Virus genome (UHGV): UHGV-0084903
DNA: 10,014 nucleotides
Strand: one strand, 5' to 3'
Source: a virus
In this document: positions 1 through 10,014 of the stretch, one piece after another
Position numbering within the stretch: position 1 is the stretch's first letter
Layout: every line of letters begins with the position of its first letter
The notes under the pieces: generated by a model
Databases searched by the model: none
Seen by the model: the letters and a program-made list of their open reading frames with translations, nothing else
What the model was told of the DNA's origin: nothing
Program-made: the position numbers and the translations under genes

Positions 1-2
1 CC

Positions 3-164
3 GAACGCCGCGATCTCGGGCTTGATGATGGCTCTTTCTGGCCTGTACTGGAAGGCATCCCGGCAACAGAGATGTTCAACGTGATTCCACTGGCACCGGG
101 CCATGCCTACGGGATGTTTATGGAACGCTTCAACGAGTTATCGGAATTACGCAAATGTGCATAA
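3..164 (+). CDS. 3' end of an upstream CDS (partial, 5' end outside window); function unknown
   Basis: Frame 3 is open from the window edge to TAA at 162..164 (C-terminus ...GHAYGMFMERFNELSELRKCA). It overlaps the ATG of the next gene by 10 nt, suggesting translational coupling. No motif recognised in the fragment. Confidence 0.4.
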   Translation, partial: ERRDLGLDDGSFWPVLEGIPATEMFNVIPLAPGHAYGMFMERFNELSELRKCA

Positions 165-1033
165 CTCATGTAGTTAGTTTTTCTGGCGGGAGAACATCTG
201 CATATCTTGTTCACCTGATGGAAGAACAAAGAAAGGCTGGCAATAACGTCTGCTACATCTTTATGGATACCGGTTGCGAACATCCGCTGACATACCGCTT
301 TATTCGGGAGGTTGTGAAGTTCTGGGGCATACCGCTAACTGTGTTGCAGGTCGATATAAATCCAGAGCTTGGGCAGCCAAATGGTTATACGGAATGGGAA
401 CCAAAGGATATTCAGACACGAATGCCGGTGCTTAAACCGTTTATGGACATGGTAAAAAAATATGGCACGCCATACATCGGCGGCGCGTTCTGCACTGACA
501 GATTAAAACTCACCCCCTTCACAAAATACTGCGATGACCATTTCGGACGAGGGAATTACATCACATGGCTGGGTATTCGTGCAGACGAACCTCGTAGGCT
601 GAAACCGAAATCGGGCGTCCGGTATCTTGCCGAGCTATCTGATTTTGATAAGTCGGATGTTATCCGGTGGTGGCATAAACAACCTTTTGATTTGCAAATC
701 CCGGAGCACCTCGGGAACTGTGTTTTCTGCATCAAAAAGTCCACGCAAAAGCTGGGGCTTGCATGTAAAGACGAACCTGGTCTGATGCGAGTTTTTAATG
801 AGCTGGTTACAGGTAAACACGTCCGGGATGGTCACCGAAAGACAAATAAAGACGTTATGTACCGTGGTCATCTGAGCCTTGACGGGATTGCCAGAATGTA
901 TGCCGACAGCGACTACAGAAATTTGTATCAGGCGATGGTGCAAGCCAGGCGATTCGATACCGGCTCGTGTTCAGAGTCATGTGAAATCTGGGGTGATCAA
1001 TTGGAATTGAAATTCGAAGAGGTGGTGGCATGA
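155..1033 (+). CDS. Phosphoadenosine phosphosulfate (PAPS) reductase-like PP-loop ATP pyrophosphatase family protein
   Basis: 292-aa ORF with N-terminal PP-loop motif SFSGGRTS (SGGxxS variant) in the position typical of the PAPS reductase/CysH/DndC-like family. Cys clusters near the C-terminus (NCVFC, CSESC) are compatible with metal or Fe-S binding. Stop TGA overlaps the next ATG (ATGA). Confidence 0.8.
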   Translation: MCITHVVSFSGGRTSAYLVHLMEEQRKAGNNVCYIFMDTGCEHPLTYRFIREVVKFWGIPLTVLQVDINPELGQPNGYTEWEPKDIQTRMPVLKPFMDMVKKYGTPYIGGAFCTDRLKLTPFTKYCDDHFGRGNYITWLGIRADEPRRLKPKSGVRYLAELSDFDKSDVIRWWHKQPFDLQIPEHLGNCVFCIKKSTQKLGLACKDEPGLMRVFNELVTGKHVRDGHRKTNKDVMYRGHLSLDGIARMYADSDYRNLYQAMVQARRFDTGSCSESCEIWGDQLELKFEEVVA

Positions 1034-1233
1034 CAATCGTAAAAACCCATACCGGCATTGTGATCACCAAAGACGGCCCGCAGGTAAAAAAACTTCACCA
1101 GACAGAGCGGATGTGGGTCGTCGGCAAAAACGAGTTTTACCACAAAGAAACCGGACGCCGCCACTTTGCAGAAAATACGCGCCGCCGACTACTGATCGAC
1201 ACCATCAAGCCTATCGAGGTGAAGCATGTTTAA
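1030..1233 (+). CDS. hypothetical protein (67 aa), phage early-region small ORF
   Basis: ATG at 1030 overlaps the stop of the preceding gene (ATGA) and is preceded by a GGTGG SD-like run. Co-directional and translationally coupled in the operon. No recognisable motif. Confidence 0.5.
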   Translation: MTIVKTHTGIVITKDGPQVKKLHQTERMWVVGKNEFYHKETGRRHFAENTRRRLLIDTIKPIEVKHV

Positions 1234-1474
1234 ACAGAACGAAAAATCTATCGCTCAAATTGCTGAGTATATCCCGCGTGCGTGCCGGGGTATGCAGTTG
1301 CAGGAAGCCAAAGCGCGCCTGGAGAAAAAAATTGCGCTCTATATCGATGACGGCTGTGATGCTGCCGTTCTTAACGCAGCGTTCGCGCCAGCTCTTAACA
1401 GTCATACGCGGGAGTCTTTTTTTTCGCGCATCGCAGCGCAGATCCGTAAAGTCCGTAAAGGAGGCAACCAGTGA
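1226..1474 (+). CDS. hypothetical protein (82 aa), phage early-region small ORF
   Basis: ATG at 1226 preceded by GAGGTG; overlaps the previous stop (ATGTTTAA); its own stop TGA overlaps the GTG start of the next gene. No recognisable motif. Confidence 0.5.
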   Translation: MFKQNEKSIAQIAEYIPRACRGMQLQEAKARLEKKIALYIDDGCDAAVLNAAFAPALNSHTRESFFSRIAAQIRKVRKGGNQ

Positions 1475-2434: not shown

Positions 2435-3211
2435 ATGACAACTTTCACCGACAAAGAACTGATTAAAGAAATCAAAGAGCGCATAGGCAGCCTGGACGTT
2501 CGAGACAATATTGAGCGCCGGTCGTATGAAATTGCACTGGCATCGCTGGAAGCAGAGCCAGTGGCGTCATGCATTATTGAGGATGGGTGCATGTGTGTTG
2601 ACGGGTTCGGTGAGTATGTAGGTCACTCGCTGCCTGATGGAACGCACCAGCTTTACACCGCGCCGCCAGCGCTGGTAGTGCTTGATGAAATGGATTTGCT
2701 TACCTGCCATCTCGACGGTGTAACTGAAACATATGCTGATGGCTGGAACGCCTGCCGTGCCGCCATGCTTCAGGGTAGCCAACCTGTAAGCCAAACTTAC
2801 AACTTGCCAGAATTAATCGAAGGCATGGAAGTTTCCATTGATGTAAGCACTTGTGATGCTGATTTAGGTAATCGCTATTTCGGCACCGTCACCGAGGCGT
2901 TAGAACTTGATACAGCCAAGAATGGTTACATCCTCCTGGTTCAGGACGCAGAGCCAAACTTCGATGTAAATGGCAACTCTCCGGTAACTCCGGATGGTTG
3001 GATAAGCTGTAGTGAGCGAATGCCTGAAAAGGGCCAGAACGTGCTTATTTCGGTGAATTTCGATAGCTCTCTGGTTGAACCGCTAATATGCTCCGCACGC
3101 TATACCGGAAGCACCTTTCGGCGCGGAGATGCAACGATTAAGCCGGGTAATGGTATTGAGCAAGCAACTCACTGGATGCCGCTACCGGAACCGCCGCAGG
3201 AGGTGAAGTGA
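2435..3211 (+). CDS. DUF551 domain-containing phage protein
   Basis: 258-aa ORF. The C-terminal segment WISCSERMPEKGQNVLIS...ATHWMPLPEPP matches the DUF551 signature common in enterobacterial prophage early regions. Stop overlaps the start of the next gene. Confidence 0.7.
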   Translation: MTTFTDKELIKEIKERIGSLDVRDNIERRSYEIALASLEAEPVASCIIEDGCMCVDGFGEYVGHSLPDGTHQLYTAPPALVVLDEMDLLTCHLDGVTETYADGWNACRAAMLQGSQPVSQTYNLPELIEGMEVSIDVSTCDADLGNRYFGTVTEALELDTAKNGYILLVQDAEPNFDVNGNSPVTPDGWISCSERMPEKGQNVLISVNFDSSLVEPLICSARYTGSTFRRGDATIKPGNGIEQATHWMPLPEPPQEVK

Positions 3212-3783
3212 TGAACAACTTAATGATCGACCTTGAGACGATGGGGAAAAATAAGGATGCACCGATCGTTTCCATTGGCGCGGTGTTCTTCACTCCAGAA
3301 ACCGGAGACATCGGACAAGAATTCTATACAGTTGTTAGCCTGGAAAGTGCTATGGGGCAAGGAGCTACACCTGACGGCGATACCATCCTGTGGTGGTTGA
3401 AACAAAGCCCTGAAGCACGAGCTGCAATCTGTATTGATGATACTTTGTCGATCAGCGATGCTCTCTCAGAACTAAATCATTTCATTAACCGGCACGCAGC
3501 CAATACGAAATATTTAAAAGTCTGGGGTAACGGGGCCACCTTCGACAACGTAATTTTACGTGGAGCTTATGAGCGAGCAGGACAAATCTGCCCGTGGGCA
3601 TACTGGAATGACCACGATGTACGCACGATCGTTACGCTTGGGCGTTCCATCGGATTCGACCCCAAAATGGACATGCCTTTCGATGGCGAACGGCACAACG
3701 CCCTGGCCGATGCCCGTCATCAGGCAAAATATGTTTCCGCTATCTGGCAGAAATTAATTCCTGCCACCAGCACAGAATTATGA
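3211..3783 (+). CDS. DnaQ-like DEDDh 3'-5' exonuclease
   Basis: Exo I motif IDLETMG (D-x-E), Exo II WGNGATFDNVIL, Exo III H-x4-D (HNALADARH). AGGAGG at 3198..3203 is 7 nt from ATG 3211; the GTG at 3208 is an alternative start. Confidence 0.75.
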   Translation: MNNLMIDLETMGKNKDAPIVSIGAVFFTPETGDIGQEFYTVVSLESAMGQGATPDGDTILWWLKQSPEARAAICIDDTLSISDALSELNHFINRHAANTKYLKVWGNGATFDNVILRGAYERAGQICPWAYWNDHDVRTIVTLGRSIGFDPKMDMPFDGERHNALADARHQAKYVSAIWQKLIPATSTEL

Positions 3784-3819
3784 TTTTCCCGGGTGCAGCC
3801 GGTTTTGATGGAGAAAATT

Positions 3820-4101
3820 ATGAACACCTTGTTTTTACTGATGGCTGAATTCAATACCCCTAACATTGAACTCTCAGCAGTTAGCCAAAAGTACTTTGGC
3901 ATGAGTCCAGCCACGGCAGAAGCAAAAGCAAACGCTTGTAAGTTGCCCGTTCCAACATATCGCATCGGCACATCACAAAAAGCAAAACGTTGCATCAATA
4001 TTCAGGATCTTGCGGAATACATAGACAAAAGACGAGAAGAAGGACGTATCGAGTGGGAACAGGTCAGAACAAGCAAACAGAAGGGCAAAGAACATCACTA
4101 A
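3820..4101 (+). CDS. PrtN-family (pyocin-activator-like) DNA-binding protein, excisionase-like
   Basis: MNTLFLLMAEF...YFGMSPATAEAKANACKLPVPTYRIGTSQKAKRCINIQDLAEYIDKRR resembles the PrtN/phage excisionase family. GGAG lies 7 nt upstream of ATG 3820; the in-frame upstream starts (3793 GTG, 3808 ATG) lack an SD. It occupies the xis position upstream of int. Confidence 0.65.
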   Translation: MNTLFLLMAEFNTPNIELSAVSQKYFGMSPATAEAKANACKLPVPTYRIGTSQKAKRCINIQDLAEYIDKRREEGRIEWEQVRTSKQKGKEHH

Positions 4102-4518: not shown

Positions 4519-5055
4519 CTACTGAGCAAATTTAAGAAAGATATCCTGCAGCTCATCAATGACTGCAGACATCACATAACCGCACTGTTCCATGCGGAAA
4601 CCAAAAGACTCGTAATACTGCACCAGTTCTGGTACTGGCTCTACAATGTGGACAACTTTACATTCAACAGCTTTACAAAATATAAAAGCACTCATAAGAG
4701 TGAGTAAAACCATGCGCCCTTTCAATGGGTGAGATTCATCTTCTCTAGAAAACCTTTCGATCATATGGATACGAAAGATGTTTTCTTCAACCCCATAAAC
4801 ACAAATTGCTGCTCCTGATGGTATTCCCTGAACCCGACCTTGCTGAACAAGTTTTATGCAGAACTCATACTTTTCTCTGGAGTTGCCATAGGTGCTTAAC
4901 GCATAGTCCCATTCAAGCTCACCATAGCCACCACACAGAATCTTGTAATCATCATCACTGAGCGGACCAACAGCAAGAGGTAAGCCGACATGATCAATAA
5001 TCAACTGGATATTGTTACGTACAGATTGACCTATCTCGTCTAGGGTAAGCATCAT
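4519..5055 (-). CDS. hypothetical protein (178 aa) with GNAT-like acyl-CoA N-acyltransferase fold signature; first gene of the reverse-strand cargo cassette
   Basis: Long ORF in an AT-rich segment. The C-terminal half shows GNAT-like topology (FRIHMIERF ... GRMVLLTLMSAFIFCKA ... VVHIVEP ... LVQYYESFGFR), but the canonical R/Q-x-x-G-x-G/A acetyl-CoA loop is not obvious. Fold assignment is tentative. Confidence 0.6.
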   Translation of the reverse strand: MMLTLDEIGQSVRNNIQLIIDHVGLPLAVGPLSDDDYKILCGGYGELEWDYALSTYGNSREKYEFCIKLVQQGRVQGIPSGAAICVYGVEENIFRIHMIERFSREDESHPLKGRMVLLTLMSAFIFCKAVECKVVHIVEPVPELVQYYESFGFRMEQCGYVMSAVIDELQDIFLKFAQ

Positions 5056-5391: not shown

Positions 5392-6489
5392 ATGGCGTAC
5401 TATAACATAGAGAAACGACTAAAATCCGATGGCACACCACGCTATCGCTGTAATGTGATTATCAAAGAAAAAGGTGTTATCACTTACAGGGAAAGCAAAA
5501 CATTCCCTAAACATGCTCATGCCAAAACATGGGGAACACAGAAAGTGATGGAATTAGATCTATATGGCATTCCATCATCAAATGCAGTTGACGGACTTAC
5601 AGTCCGTGACTTACTACACAAATATTTAAATGACCCAAATGCCGGAGGTAAAGCAGGCCGTACTAAAAGATATGTGCTGGAACTGCTTATGGATAGTGAC
5701 ATCTCCGCGATCAAACTATCTGAACTGACAGAAAATGACGTAATTGAACATTGCAGGCTAAGAAACAACGCTGGTGCAGGTCCAGCAACAGTCAGCCACG
5801 ATGTTAGTTATCTTGGCAGTGTTCTGGATGCGGCCAAACCTGTATACGGAATTAATTACACATCAAACCCGGCGAAAAGCGCTCGCCCATATCTACTTAA
5901 ACTTGGTTTGATTGGTAAATCAAACCGTCGTAATCGTAGACCAGCATCTGATGAACTGGACATGCTCATTGAAGGCCTTCAACAACGATCTACTCATAAA
6001 TGCTCAAAAATTCCGTTCGTTGATATCCTCAAATTTTCTGTGTGGTCCTGTATGCGGATCGGAGAAGTATGCCGGTTACGATGGGAAGATCTCGACCAGG
6101 AACAAAAATCTATACTCGTAAGAGACAGGAAAGATCCACGCAAAAAGGAAGGCAACCACATGAAAGTAGCCTTGCTTGGGGAAGCCTGGGATATCGTCCA
6201 ACGACAGCCCAAAAAATCGGAATTCATTTTTCCATATAACAGCACTTCTGTTACTGCAGGATTTCAGAGGGTAAGAAGCAAATTAGGTATTAAAGATCTG
6301 CGATACCATGATTTGCGTAGAGAAGGGGCAAGTCGCTTATTTGAGGCTGGTTTTAGTATTGAGGAAGTCGCTCAGGTTACAGGGCATCGTTCATTAAACG
6401 TGCTATGGCAGGTATATACCGAACTGTATCCGAAATCTTTACATAATCGTTTTGAAGAGCTCCAAAGGAGCAGAAATAAGACCTCTTGA
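5392..6489 (+). CDS. int: Tyrosine site-specific recombinase (phage integrase)
   Basis: 365-aa ORF; GAGG 7 nt upstream of the ATG. Catalytic-domain signature: Arg in CMRIGEVCRLRWEDL, H-x-x-R in HDLRREGAS, His in TGHRS and a downstream Tyr (VLWQVYTELY). Confidence 0.85.
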   Translation: MAYYNIEKRLKSDGTPRYRCNVIIKEKGVITYRESKTFPKHAHAKTWGTQKVMELDLYGIPSSNAVDGLTVRDLLHKYLNDPNAGGKAGRTKRYVLELLMDSDISAIKLSELTENDVIEHCRLRNNAGAGPATVSHDVSYLGSVLDAAKPVYGINYTSNPAKSARPYLLKLGLIGKSNRRNRRPASDELDMLIEGLQQRSTHKCSKIPFVDILKFSVWSCMRIGEVCRLRWEDLDQEQKSILVRDRKDPRKKEGNHMKVALLGEAWDIVQRQPKKSEFIFPYNSTSVTAGFQRVRSKLGIKDLRYHDLRREGASRLFEAGFSIEEVAQVTGHRSLNVLWQVYTELYPKSLHNRFEELQRSRNKTS

Positions 6490-6550: not shown

Positions 6551-6799
6551 ATGCGTATTGAGATCTGCATAGCCAAAGAAAAAATGACTAAAATGCCAAA
6601 CGGTGCTGTGGATGCGTTAAAGGAAGAATTAACCCGACGCATCAGTAAACGTTATGACGATGTAGAGGTGATCGTAAAAGCCACCAGCAACGATGGCCTT
6701 TCTGTTACGCGCACCGCCGATAAAGATTCAGCTAAAACTTTTGTTCAGGAAACTCTGAAAGATACCTGGGAGTCTGCTGACGAGTGGTTTGTTCACTAA
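6551..6799 (+). CDS. dinI: DinI-like DNA-damage-inducible protein
   Basis: 82-aa ORF closely resembling E. coli DinI at both ends (MRIE.IAK..., ...[10 protein letters not shown]). GAGGG lies 6 nt upstream of the ATG. The LexA-box promoter immediately upstream supports the call. Confidence 0.85.
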
Positions 6800-7214: not shown

Positions 7215-7919
7215 TTATCTAATATCGCTTCGGGAAGTTAATAACAACTTTAATTCTGACTCAAGTTCATCAACTCTTTCAGTCAGCTTCTGGATATGGT
7301 GAATCAGTGGAACAACCAGACGTTCGTACATTACACCTTCGGCAACAAGGCCATTGCTGGAAATAGCTTCAGGAGCATCATCTTCGTTAGCTGGTCGCCA
7401 GTGTACAAACTGAGGGGCAATTTCTCCTACTTCCTCGGCAATCAATCCGTAGAACCCCCAGTCACGCCTGTCATTTTCGCATTGCGACCTGTACCACACA
7501 GGGCGCATCCTGAAAATGACATCGGCGTGCTCTGAATCTATCGTCTCTACTGAATGTTTATAGCGGATAGACGATGTGGACCGCAGTACAGACGAAATTG
7601 CAGGGTCAGGATTAAGATAAAGGTTTGCCGCCGCAGTAGTCGTGCCCAACCCCCATAAATAAAACGCTTCGCGGCCAGTCAGCGGGTAAAAATCACCGCC
7701 ATAACGACCGCTTTCCAGATCGTTCGCTTCCACTTTGTTTTTCAGCTTATTATCAACTTCAGTTTTTGTGTATCTGGTGCTGATATCCTGCTTTGCACTG
7801 GTCATATCAATCTGAAGCGTTGATACTTTTCCGTTAATTGAGGAAATATCTTCCTTAGTTTTACTGACATCTCCCTTTAGCGTGGTGATATCTCCAGGAA
7901 TTACTGTCGATGTAGCCAT
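7215..7919 (-). CDS. Tail-fibre-like protein with C-terminal intramolecular chaperone (Peptidase_S74-type) domain
   Basis: 234-aa ORF; GGGAG SD upstream. The C-terminal roughly 120 aa match the endosialidase/T5 pb1 chaperone pattern: SSIRYK (Ser...Lys spacing as in the catalytic dyad), GLIAEEVGEIAPQFV, VMYERLVVPLIHHIQKLTERVDELESEL. The N-terminal roughly 115 aa are heptad-like. Confidence 0.7.
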   Translation of the reverse strand: MATSTVIPGDITTLKGDVSKTKEDISSINGKVSTLQIDMTSAKQDISTRYTKTEVDNKLKNKVEANDLESGRYGGDFYPLTGREAFYLWGLGTTTAAANLYLNPDPAISSVLRSTSSIRYKHSVETIDSEHADVIFRMRPVWYRSQCENDRRDWGFYGLIAEEVGEIAPQFVHWRPANEDDAPEAISSNGLVAEGVMYERLVVPLIHHIQKLTERVDELESELKLLLTSRSDIR

Positions 7920-7928
7920 TTGTCTCCC

Positions 7929-8210
7929 TCACATCCAGCCACGAAGTTGATGCTCAACAACAACCGCGTATTCATCGAATATTGACGGTGTTTTCACATC
8001 ATTAATGATGCGCACGTTTACAAAATATCCGTCTTCCTTAACACATACCGGCTCGCCATCTTCAGTAATTTCCCCGGTTTCTTTGTACACGTTACCTATC
8101 ACATCAATGAGAACATTGTTCTGCATCACCTCGTCATCGTCATAACCAATGCTATCCATAAAGGCCGAAAAGTCGGCCTTGTCTGTGAATTTGATAATTA
8201 AGTCTCGCAT
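7929..8210 (-). CDS. hypothetical acidic protein (93 aa); possible tail-fibre assembly/accessory protein by position
   Basis: Its ATG overlaps the stop of the upstream tail-fibre gene (TAATG), indicating coupling. No recognisable motif; role inferred only from position between fibre genes. Confidence 0.5.
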   Translation of the reverse strand: MRDLIIKFTDKADFSAFMDSIGYDDDEVMQNNVLIDVIGNVYKETGEITEDGEPVCVKEDGYFVNVRIINDVKTPSIFDEYAVVVEHQLRGWM

Positions 8211-10014
8211 TATATTACCTCTCCCATTTGTGCATCGGTTAATTCTTTATGCCATATACGAAAATTACGAATGTGACCGAAAAGATGACGTAGACCGCTA
8301 TTAGTCTGTCCCCCAATCCTGAAGAAATAACCAGATTTAACACCGACATGATCCGTGGTTTTAGGAGTCCCATGCTGGGCATTGCTAACGAAATGCACAT
8401 TACCAGATTCATTTAAAACAAATCCAAGAACAGATTTTTGTTCAAATAATACTGGCGATACGGCGGCTACTGTACTACCGTTTTTATTGTGCATCGTAAC
8501 ACCAGGAAATAATGTTGAACTAATAGCAACACTTATATATTGACCCGGAGTTGTGCTCCCACCACTGGTATCAAAAATTCGTGGTGCTGCATTTGGCGTT
8601 TCGTTCCAGTTTGTATGAACTTCAGCTAGAAATGTTAAAGGTGGTGTACCGATATTGTTATTTGTTGGTATATTCACCATATCACTGGCTCTTGTGACTG
8701 GCGTTGCCTCAGTAATAATAAACGAAGAAGCGCACGAACCGCCTTCGACCTGAGGAGTTGCAACATAAATATAATCATCTGCACCAGTGCTTCCCCCTTT
8801 TGGTGGTGCATATTGCACCATCGCACCGATCATATTTTCTGTATCAAGTGCCTTAATTGTTGCCTCAAAGAAAATCCATTTGCTTGCTTCATTTTTAACA
8901 GCCCTTGCAGTAATACGACTTGCAGCGCCGCCAGTTTTATCAATCGATAAATCTGTCATATTTAAGTAAGCATCACCCAGGAATTTGTAGGTAGATCCAT
9001 CATATTCTTCAAATCGTAATCGACATCTTAAATTTGGAGTCCCACTTTGTACCCTGCATGAGATAGTTACATACTTTTCATCGCCGGTAACATCATATCC
9101 TTTGCTTCCAGATACTGTGACAATAGAAATGGCTGAGGTTTGCCCCACCATTTCTGGTTTTAATGTGAATTTTGCGTACTGGAAACCAAAATCATCTACA
9201 CCTGATGTATTTAAAATCATATTTGATGACTTGTTCCACTTTGATGGATTTGTGCTGTTTATTAACAGGTTTGTACGCTGCCCTTCAATCAGCAATCCAT
9301 ACTTTTCAAAGCGAGGTTCATCGATTGCAGCCTCTGTCAGCACACCAGATTTATTAATGTAAGTTGCTTTTGATGCGCGTTTAAACTTTACAATCTTGTC
9401 GCCAGGCATTGTTATTTCATCATCACCAATAACAATCTTTTTATATGATGGCGAAAAGCCCGTAATCATATCCAGTGAATCGTTAAACGGTATCCACACA
9501 TCAGGAAGCGGCTGTAAGACATATTTATACGGCTCTGCTGCCTGGCTTGCGTACTCCCTGGCTGCGTCTTCACTTGCTTTTGCAGCCGTCTGGCTTGCAG
9601 CTGATGCTTTCGCCGAGTTAGCAGCCGCAGTCTCGCTCGCCTTTGCGTTGGTTTCACTGGTTTTTGCAGCTTTTTGACTGTTGGCTGATGCAATGGCAGA
9701 AGCAGCCGCCGCGCTTGCAGAACCAGCTGCAGCACTCTCGCTTTGGGCTGCTGCATCCTGACTGTTTTTCGCCGCAGTTTCGCTGGTTTTGGCATTCGTT
9801 TCGCTGGTCTTCGCTGCCGTCTGGCTGGACTTTGCGTTGGTTTCGCTCGCCTTCGCAGCTTTCTGGCTGTTAGCCGCAGCAGTTGCTGATCCAGCTGCTG
9901 AAGTCGCAGAACCGGCTGCCGCGCTCTCGCTTTGGGCTGCTGCAACCTGGCTGTTTTTTGCCGCAGTTTCACTGGCTTTGGCATTCGTTTCGCTGGTTTT
10001 CGCTGCCGTCTGGC
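8210..10014 (-). CDS. stf: Side tail fibre protein (partial; N-terminal part lies beyond the window end)
   Basis: Reverse-strand frame is open from the window edge (10012) to the stop at 8210, 600 aa in-window. The ORF-track 'M' at 9499 is an internal GTG. Upstream part encodes AAKTSETNAKASETAAKNSQ-type repeats like lambda Stf; C-terminus ends ...HLFGHIRNFRIWHKELTDAQMGEVI, resembling the end of LamG/concanavalin-A-like domains. Confidence 0.85.
   Translation of the reverse strand, partial: QTAAKTSETNAKASETAAKNSQVAAAQSESAAAGSATSAAGSATAAANSQKAAKASETNAKSSQTAAKTSETNAKTSETAAKNSQDAAAQSESAAAGSASAAAASAIASANSQKAAKTSETNAKASETAAANSAKASAASQTAAKASEDAAREYASQAAEPYKYVLQPLPDVWIPFNDSLDMITGFSPSYKKIVIGDDEITMPGDKIVKFKRASKATYINKSGVLTEAAIDEPRFEKYGLLIEGQRTNLLINSTNPSKWNKSSNMILNTSGVDDFGFQYAKFTLKPEMVGQTSAISIVTVSGSKGYDVTGDEKYVTISCRVQSGTPNLRCRLRFEEYDGSTYKFLGDAYLNMTDLSIDKTGGAASRITARAVKNEASKWIFFEATIKALDTENMIGAMVQYAPPKGGSTGADDYIYVATPQVEGGSCASSFIITEATPVTRASDMVNIPTNNNIGTPPLTFLAEVHTNWNETPNAAPRIFDTSGGSTTPGQYISVAISSTLFPGVTMHNKNGSTVAAVSPVLFEQKSVLGFVLNESGNVHFVSNAQHGTPKTTDHVGVKSGYFFRIGGQTNSGLRHLFGHIRNFRIWHKELTDAQMGEVI
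9540..10014. repeat. In-frame imperfect tandem DNA repeats (period about 189 bp) within the tail fibre gene
   Basis: Near-identical blocks recur, e.g. the motif ctctcgctttgggctgctgca at about 9736 and about 9925, and cgctggt(t/c)ttcgctgccgtctggc at about 9801 and about 9990. They translate in-frame into Ala/Ser-rich fibre repeats; they are coding repeats, not a CRISPR array. Confidence 0.7.

Follow-up and report, generated by a model that had tools for sequence, protein, structure and literature searches.

NinC of a lambdoid phage is a stand-alone PP-loop protein with a proposed role in DNA modification and counter-defence

The 10,014-nucleotide (nt) stretch of virus genome UHGV-0084903 analyzed here (hereafter, the window) contains an open reading frame (ORF) at positions 155-1033 (+) whose 292-amino-acid (aa) product we identify by homology as the ortholog of phage lambda NinC, an already known feature. 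Its motifs place NinC in the PP-loop ATP-pyrophosphatase superfamily, as a stand-alone member whose ATP-binding loop is intact. A role in DNA modification or anti-restriction appears most likely given three lines of evidence, namely fusions of family members to DNA methyltransferases, resemblance to SspD, and a Vibrio phage cassette that counters Dnd. On a more specific proposal we are evenly divided: NinC may be an ATP-dependent, probably iron-sulfur enzyme that modifies phage or plasmid DNA early after entry, as counter-defence against phosphorothioate-based restriction.

The ORF lies far beyond chance because it matches phrog_424 (E=1.9e-93), aligns without gaps to 290 aa of lambda Nin290 (NinC, orf-290) at 79% identity, and has 5052 homologs in the databases; a second match, to phrog_33262, has E=1.2e-92. 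RefSeq annotates the same ORF boundaries in an Escherichia coli prophage (locus L001, 12155-13033) that is 99.9% identical over window positions 1-1300. Annotated proteins with 99-100% identity to the window protein occur in E. coli, and the copies in Shiga-toxin (Stx) phages are 92-94% identical, part of them annotated as “NinC.” All of the sequence features that we use to recognize the family (SGG[RK][TS]S, C113, GxRxDE..R, GNCxFCxKK, and CxESCE) are present. The window protein and lambda NinC share full-length homology, motifs, and size, and each is encoded by an early-operon accessory gene that overlaps its upstream neighbor; however, the lambda gene follows ninB in the rightward nin region, whereas the window gene follows yfdR in a leftward operon. 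Thus the window ninC does not lie between the replication genes and Q, as in the nin region, but between yfdR and ea22/xis/int. Stx phages have the same placement as the window, and the difference is one of position, not of homology.

We used HMMER to search 1.84 billion cluster representatives with the family profile; 371 clusters matched at E≤1e-30 and 1360 at E≤1e-10. To count conservation, we then aligned the 150 best representatives of clusters formed at 50% identity to the family profile. The PP-loop and the CxxC and CxxxC cysteine pairs noticed in a first-pass annotation of the window are all present in the ORF. The PP-loop SFSGGRTS (residues 8-15; 176-199, +) is the predicted ATP pyrophosphatase/adenylation site, and its residues S10 (124/124), G12 (123/124), and S15 (124/124) are essentially fixed; its R/K position is kept in about 90% of representatives, and the remaining family motifs in 96-100%. 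E42 is present in 129/129. The segment FCTDRLK (residues 112-118; 488-508, +) holds C113 (139/140) and K118 (144/144), and we take it to be akin to the CCxxRK iron-sulfur/substrate motif of adenosine phosphosulfate (APS) reductases (2goy-type enzymes). The GxRxDE..R motif of the phosphoadenosine phosphosulfate (PAPS) reductase family appears as GIRADEPRR (residues 140-148; 572-598, +), in which no fewer than 97% of representatives keep each of G140, R142, D144, E145, and R148. In GNCVFCIKK (residues 187-195; 713-739, +), G187 and N188 (140/141 each) and K195 (140/140) accompany an invariant CxxC formed by C189 (141/141) and C192 (140/140) (719-730, +), the proposed [4Fe-4S] ligands. Finally, CSESCE (residues 272-277; 968-985, +) contains a C-terminal CxxxC (C272/C276; 968-982) just before a disordered tail; C276 is found in 116/116 and C272 in 111/116 (96%). 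We propose that this motif could supply a fourth cluster ligand and/or act as a persulfide carrier. The remaining cysteines are not conserved; C126, for example, occurs in only 41%. Many family members are 330-360 aa long and give a profile match split in two near residue 150 (e.g., P0125, P0127, P0131, and P0139), and therefore a large subgroup appears to have an insertion of ~50-60 aa after GIRADEPRR.

Taken with what is established for DndC, TtuA, NcsA, LarE, and APS reductase, the intact ATP loop and four near-invariant cysteines are probably the signature of an ATP-dependent, iron-sulfur, sulfur-transfer enzyme and not of a decoy. A decoy would be a non-catalytic mimic of DndC or SspD that poisons the host's phosphorothioate-sensing or restriction complex. 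The N-terminal half is indeed common to NinC, SspD, and DndC, and known anti-Dnd factors can target proteins, as the JSS1_004 kinase does. However, the PP-loop, E42, K118, GxRxDE..R, GNCxFCxKK, and C276 are invariant or nearly so across very diverse members, which is not expected of a decoy and argues for an enzyme; we consider mimicry very unlikely.

AlphaFold2 produced a confident model of NinC from 38 homologs (predicted local distance difference test, pLDDT, 86.8), with pLDDT dropping from the block at residues 271-280 (mean 57) and falling to <50 for residues 278-292. APS and PAPS reductases were among the best structural matches identified by Foldseek; since the TM-scores were only about 0.37, the C-terminal ~110 residues appear to be without a solved relative. 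A structure search of BFVD returned one close viral model and otherwise weak PP-loop matches. A 270-aa PDB chain named “PptA” (21fy_C) is a further weak PP-loop match (E=0.6). Pfam PAPS_reduct (PF01507) covers only the first ~70 residues, with 37 bits. The first-pass assignment of the ORF to the PP-loop proteins with a PAPS-reductase fold is supported.

Database names, PF01507, and the presence of APS and PAPS reductases among the top structural matches could also be read as signs of an auxiliary metabolic gene, in which NinC would be a true PAPS/APS reductase that boosts sulfate assimilation by the host. However, the CysH equivalog model NF002537 (NCBIfam) scored 20.3 bits against a cutoff of 154, and the family profile aligns to CysH structures over only ~100 residues, the first ones. 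CysH has the degenerate sequence SSSFGIQA at the PP-loop position, whereas NinC retains SFSGGRTSA, with the SGGxxS that CysH has lost. The C-terminal catalytic motif of CysH is ECGLH; this cysteine motif is absent from the NinC sequence, which has CSESCE at its C-terminus instead. The fusion partners also differ, being DNA methyltransferases in the NinC family. We effectively exclude that NinC is a true PAPS reductase.

DNA methyltransferases are the only recurrent fused domains in the family, with five Dam fusions and one D12 fusion, all of the N6-adenine type, among the 150 representatives. Mixta tenebrionis encodes a 1099-aa protein that joins a C5-methylase, NinC, and a D12-methylase (locus L121, 2402-5701), and Sodalis sp. 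RH21 encodes a 1031-aa protein that joins a C5-methylase, NinC, and Dam (locus L125, 2438-5533). These three-domain ORFs resemble “multi-modification” enzymes. The association extends to plasmids. A TBLASTN analysis of plasmids yielded nothing but NinC-like and generic “PAPS reductase family” genes, and 141 Acinetobacter plasmid records had a match. On the Acinetobacter baumannii conjugative plasmid p1_005078 (MOBF/MPF_F; locus L169, 4983-5756 and 6997-7773), a NinC-like gene with 31% identity is followed two genes later by an N-6 DNA methylase gene. The same region holds H-NS, thermonuclease, and DUF2786 genes, and it may be an establishment or anti-restriction region.

Among the 5027 defense-system models in PADLOC, the best match to NinC was SspD (55.7 bits, E=1.5e-15), followed by BrxP (18.5 bits) and DndC (16.3 bits). 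The kinship to DndC/SspD-type proteins suggested in the first-pass annotation is borne out for the N-terminal half. The SspD match spans only residues 5-152 of NinC and profile positions 2-125 of 277, and no full-length DndC match was obtained, as the two PADLOC DndC scores (16.3 and 15.0 bits, E about 1e-3) involve residues 6-146 only. NinC shares with SspD, DndC, and BrxP a matching PP-loop N-terminal half, a richness in cysteines, and presumably ATP and sulfur chemistry; however, it has a C-terminal half of its own, lacks DndD/DndE, SspB/SspC, or DUF4007 partners, and is borne by phages and not in a defense island.

The third line of evidence comes from Vibrio phage 44E38.1, in which p0018 encodes a fusion of a PAPS domain and a Dam domain; the PAPS domain has 55% identity to the window NinC over 96% of its length. 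When p0018 and the upstream gene p0019 were moved into a sensitive sister phage, the recipient plated fully, at 10^11 plaque-forming units (PFU)/ml, on a Dnd-carrying host (preprint 10.1101/2021.05.05.442762). A later paper refers to this result as evasion of Dnd by a phage PAPS reductase (PMC13551039). The p0018 protein of phages 44E38.1/75E35.1 (Piel et al. 2022) has a homologous N-terminal domain with the same conserved motifs as the window protein, but it also has a Dam methyltransferase at its C-terminus and is encoded after a DUF6475 gene, whereas the window NinC stands alone, ends at residue 292, and follows yfdR.

In the mechanism that we propose, NinC would be made early, from the early operon, and would use ATP to adenylate its target. 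Its cysteines would hold a [4Fe-4S] cluster and/or relay sulfur from the host cysteine desulfurase IscS, and the sulfur would be transferred to the phage's (or plasmid's) own DNA, in the way that DndC, SspD, TtuA, NcsA, and LarE act on their substrates. DNA modified in this manner would read as “self” or be refractory to phosphorothioate-based (Dnd/Ssp-type) restriction, and the fused or neighboring methyltransferases would do likewise against methylation-based restriction. What we infer here is the presence of the cluster, the sulfur chemistry, DNA as the substrate, and the identity of the targeted defense.

Several observations weigh against this proposal. Lambda DNA is not known to bear any unusual sulfur modification. 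Lambda NinC is dispensable for plaque formation and growth, and a lambda interactome gave no NinC interactions. In known phosphorothioation systems, targeting of the DNA depends on DndD/DndE or SspB/SspC; neither DndD/DndE nor SspB/SspC genes occur in the full prophage context or among 150 neighboring genes of family members, and DndD/DndE are likewise absent from the window. The SspD and DndC hidden Markov models (HMMs) cover the N-terminal half only, as described above. The Vibrio transfer moved p0019 together with the PAPS and fused Dam domains, and the contribution of the PAPS domain was not separated (preprint 10.1101/2021.05.05.442762). Three Dnd systems nevertheless restrict lambda, by 3- to 60-fold (PMC10470545), so lambda NinC would give at best partial protection, depending on the genotype of the lambda stock used. 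A search of the literature on NinC, NinC-like, DndC-like, and SspD-like proteins found no biochemical study of the NinC family.

NinC could instead act on RNA, for example by tRNA thiolation or another PP-loop reaction that tunes translation or shields tRNAs from host anticodon nucleases. NinC has no RNA-binding domain, the recurrent fusions and neighbors are DNA methyltransferases and not RNA enzymes, and the genetic evidence from the Vibrio cassette concerns a DNA-restriction system; we therefore regard an RNA substrate as quite unlikely.

The first-pass annotation had linked ninC to its upstream gene, which is truncated by the window edge, and noted that such genes in lambdoid prophages are often paired with a ParB-like gene. 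The start of ninC does overlap the end of this truncated ORF: the frame-3 ORF (1-164, +; its last 53 codons plus the TAA stop at 162-164) runs 10 nt past the beginning of ninC at ATG 155, placing that ATG within the last codons of the upstream gene (AAATGTGCATAA; 155-164, +). Translation of the truncated ORF matched phrog_6402 and phrog_318, “deoxyribonucleoside 5' monophosphate phosphatase” (E=1.5e-26 and 1.5e-20, respectively). We recovered the full-length gene from identical E. coli prophages, where RefSeq names it yfdR, 5'-deoxynucleotidase. Full-length YfdR gave a weak Pfam match to YfbR-like (24.8 bits against a cutoff of 25.9), and HD_3 was also below cutoff. Judged by these homologies, the upstream gene is yfdR, encoding an HD-family 5'-deoxynucleotidase, and the expected ParB-like partner is not there. 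YfdR of the K-12 cryptic prophage CPS-53 is reported to bind DnaA (PMC4776307). A YfdR-like partner was also considered for the Vibrio cassette and rejected, as p0019 aligned to YfdR by BLASTP with E=68 and is a DUF6475 protein.

The last codons of yfdR (CGCAAATG[T/C]GCAT[A/G]A; window 148-164; locus L002, 11505-11521) hold the start codon of the next gene, which is ninC in the window and yfdS in K-12. Thus the identical yfdR 3' end in K-12 (CGCAAATG[C]GCATGA) provides the start codon of an unrelated gene. Stx phages match the window DNA from position 153 onward, which places a mosaic joint exactly at the ninC start codon. Lying at this mosaic boundary, the 3' junction of yfdR serves as a portable site for coupling.

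Upstream genes differ among relatives of the window. The yfdR junction is retained in about 65 of 80 close relatives in IMG/VR (93-100% identical), the Stx-phage junction occurs in about 11, and a third type in about 6. The gene preceding ninC is ninB in lambda, a 147-aa gene of unassigned function separated by a 107-nt gap in Stx phages, NinG in Erwinia, Pantoea, and Chimaeribacter, DUF1367 in Providencia, DUF6475 in Vibrio phages, and a gene for a hypothetical protein in E. coli phage-plasmids. E. coli phage-plasmid-like replicons with ninC are about 94-99 kb and include the plasmid pAPEC201603 (93.8 kb, non-mobilizable; locus L170, 4007-4879), where a 93% identical ninC lies beside ea22-like and DUF551 genes and the upstream gene again differs from those of the other contexts.

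We surveyed genes within three positions on either side of ninC in 56 diverse loci and assigned Pfam families to 150 genes within two positions. This census identified DUF3268 (10), NinG (6), SSB (5), DUF968 (4), Q-like, AAA_24, C5 methylase (2), and Dam (1); neighbors are clade-specific only, with DUF3268 in Xenorhabdus and Photorhabdus, then NinG, SSB, and Q-like. These 150 neighbors of diverse homologs represent 53 Pfam families, and the 25 commonest include neither ParBc nor an HD family. NinC has no conserved neighboring partner. A conserved downstream module was rejected as well: the 67-aa and 82-aa ORFs that follow ninC in the window are restricted to close E. coli and Stx-phage relatives, being present at loci L001 and L004 and absent from all of the diverse loci.

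These data bear on the suggestion that the PAPS-reductase-like gene and its coupled upstream gene form a two-gene DNA-modification module, in which the partner would be ParB-like, as in IbrAB or DndB/DndC. The 10-nt overlap and the retention of the junction in about 65 of the 80 close relatives are consistent with a pair. However, the upstream gene is not ParB-like, relatives carry NinB, NinG, DUF1367, DUF6475, or unassigned genes in its place, neither ParBc nor HD is among the 25 commonest neighbor families, and the same yfdR junction drives yfdS in K-12. IbrA/IbrB-type pairs, which are probably what the first-pass annotation had in view, resemble the window gene in having a PAPS-reductase-fold gene in E. 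coli mobile elements; however, no ParB-like neighbor occurs in the ninC context of the window or among the top census families. The yfdR-ninC pairing does not extend beyond close relatives from E. coli; an unrelated upstream gene without co-conservation, which the first-pass annotation named as refuting its reading, is what we observe for the pair. We consider a module of this kind exceedingly improbable, and its ParB-pair version effectively excluded. The suggested DNA-modification or anti-restriction function falls for the two-gene pair, whereas for NinC alone it is supported by the fusions, the SspD match, the anti-Dnd cassette, and the nearby N-6 methylase on A. baumannii conjugative plasmids.

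Other neighbors concern nucleotides. In chi-like phages (Salmonella phage FSL SP-030; locus L006, 2977-4334), the NinC-like gene overlaps a downstream “nucleoside 2-deoxyribosyltransferase” gene (Pfam DUF7768) and is near ThyX, and in Riemerella phage RAP44 (locus L008, 2676-4743) it is flanked by a small DNA methyltransferase gene and a gene for a MazG-like pyrophosphatase. With YfdR in the window, these neighbors hint at a loose link between NinC and nucleotide metabolism. NinC might accordingly modify DNA or the nucleotide pool by something other than phosphorothioation, such as base thiolation or amination or action on deoxynucleoside monophosphates (dNMPs) prior to their incorporation, with a broader anti-restriction effect. 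The dNMPase YfdR, the deoxyribosyltransferase and ThyX of chi-like phages, and the MazG-like enzyme of the Riemerella phage fit this alternative, as do the absence of a DndDE or SspBC partner and a C-terminal half without a solved relative. However, the nucleotide-metabolism neighbors are not conserved, the sole recorded phenotype concerns Dnd, and the nearest defense HMMs are those of phosphorothioation enzymes. We rate this alternative as unlikely while keeping it in view.

A stronger form of the proposal that NinC modifies DNA with sulfur is that it does so as a self-sufficient, single-polypeptide enzyme, producing a phosphorothioate or a thiolated base in phage and plasmid DNA without the targeting machinery DndD/E or SspB/C. 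We put this form forward as a speculation that is rather unlikely to hold.

In the window, the leftward early (pL-type) arm of a lambdoid phage or prophage resembling mEp460 leads into the int and tail-fiber region. Downstream of ninC are two overlapping small ORFs of 67 aa (1030-1233, +) and 82 aa (1226-1474, +), whose phrog matches (phrog_1226 and phrog_1344, respectively) are both of unknown function. These are followed by genes encoding an Ead/Ea22-like protein (1471-2142, +), a DUF551 protein (2435-3211, +), an Rv2179c-like 3'-5' exonuclease (3208-3783, +), and a PrtN-like probable excisionase (3793-4101, +), so that ninC sits between yfdR and the ea22/DUF551/exonuclease/xis/int genes. 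The exonuclease ORF has a strong match to Rv2179c-like 3'-5' exoribonuclease (E=3.7e-75) and a weak PADLOC match to DEDDh, and its relatives are annotated “3'-5' exonuclease.” According to the ORF list, junctions overlap throughout this operon, gene after gene, and no sigma-70-like promoter was detected in positions 1-1600 of the window. Because no promoter-like site was found there and all junctions overlap, co-transcription and translational coupling of ninC with the operon are plausible; for the same reasons, the ninC/yfdR overlap is an ordinary feature of a packed early operon and not the mark of a dedicated two-gene system.

A 178-aa ORF (4519-5055, -) that separates the xis-like gene from int, and is read in the opposite direction, occupies a position typical of a moron or defense cargo gene; it had no match in Pfam or PADLOC. 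The integrase gene (5392-6489, +) is followed by a DinI-like gene (6551-6799, +) and by side-tail-fiber genes (7215-9499, -). Near the 3' end of the window, a tandem repeat at 9768-9856 consists of 2.1 copies of a 42-nt unit, and the region 9466-10014 has long ORFs on both strands; this is likely the repetitive N-terminal part of a side-tail-fiber gene that leaves the window.

A set of database loci with ninC identical to that of lambda (L089-L099 and other short loci, e.g., L089, 4001-4873) occurs on ~48.4-kb or tiny contigs, several of them named with ~1x coverage, in assemblies labeled Pseudomonas, Oceanobacillus, Neobacillus, Shewanella, Kitasatospora, Bradyrhizobium, Enterococcus, and others. 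These loci are almost certainly lambda DNA contamination of public genome assemblies.

The label “PAPS reductase / auxiliary metabolic gene” is very probably wrong or misleading for the NinC family, a point of consequence for virome studies in which it is tallied among the metabolic genes. The family occurs not only in lambda but also in Shiga-toxin phages, chi-like phages, hundreds of Vibrio phages, E. coli phage-plasmids, and A. baumannii conjugative plasmids. If NinC were indeed a self-sufficient DNA sulfur-modification enzyme, a cryptic modification would be present in the DNA of lambda, of many lambdoid, Stx, and chi-like phages, and of conjugative plasmids of Acinetobacter, and it would weaken restriction systems, among them those that sense phosphorothioates. 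The ninC gene has appeared on maps of lambda ever since the phage genome was first sequenced, with no assigned function, and the proposed counter-defense role now offers a specific hypothesis for this 40-year-old orphan gene of lambda.

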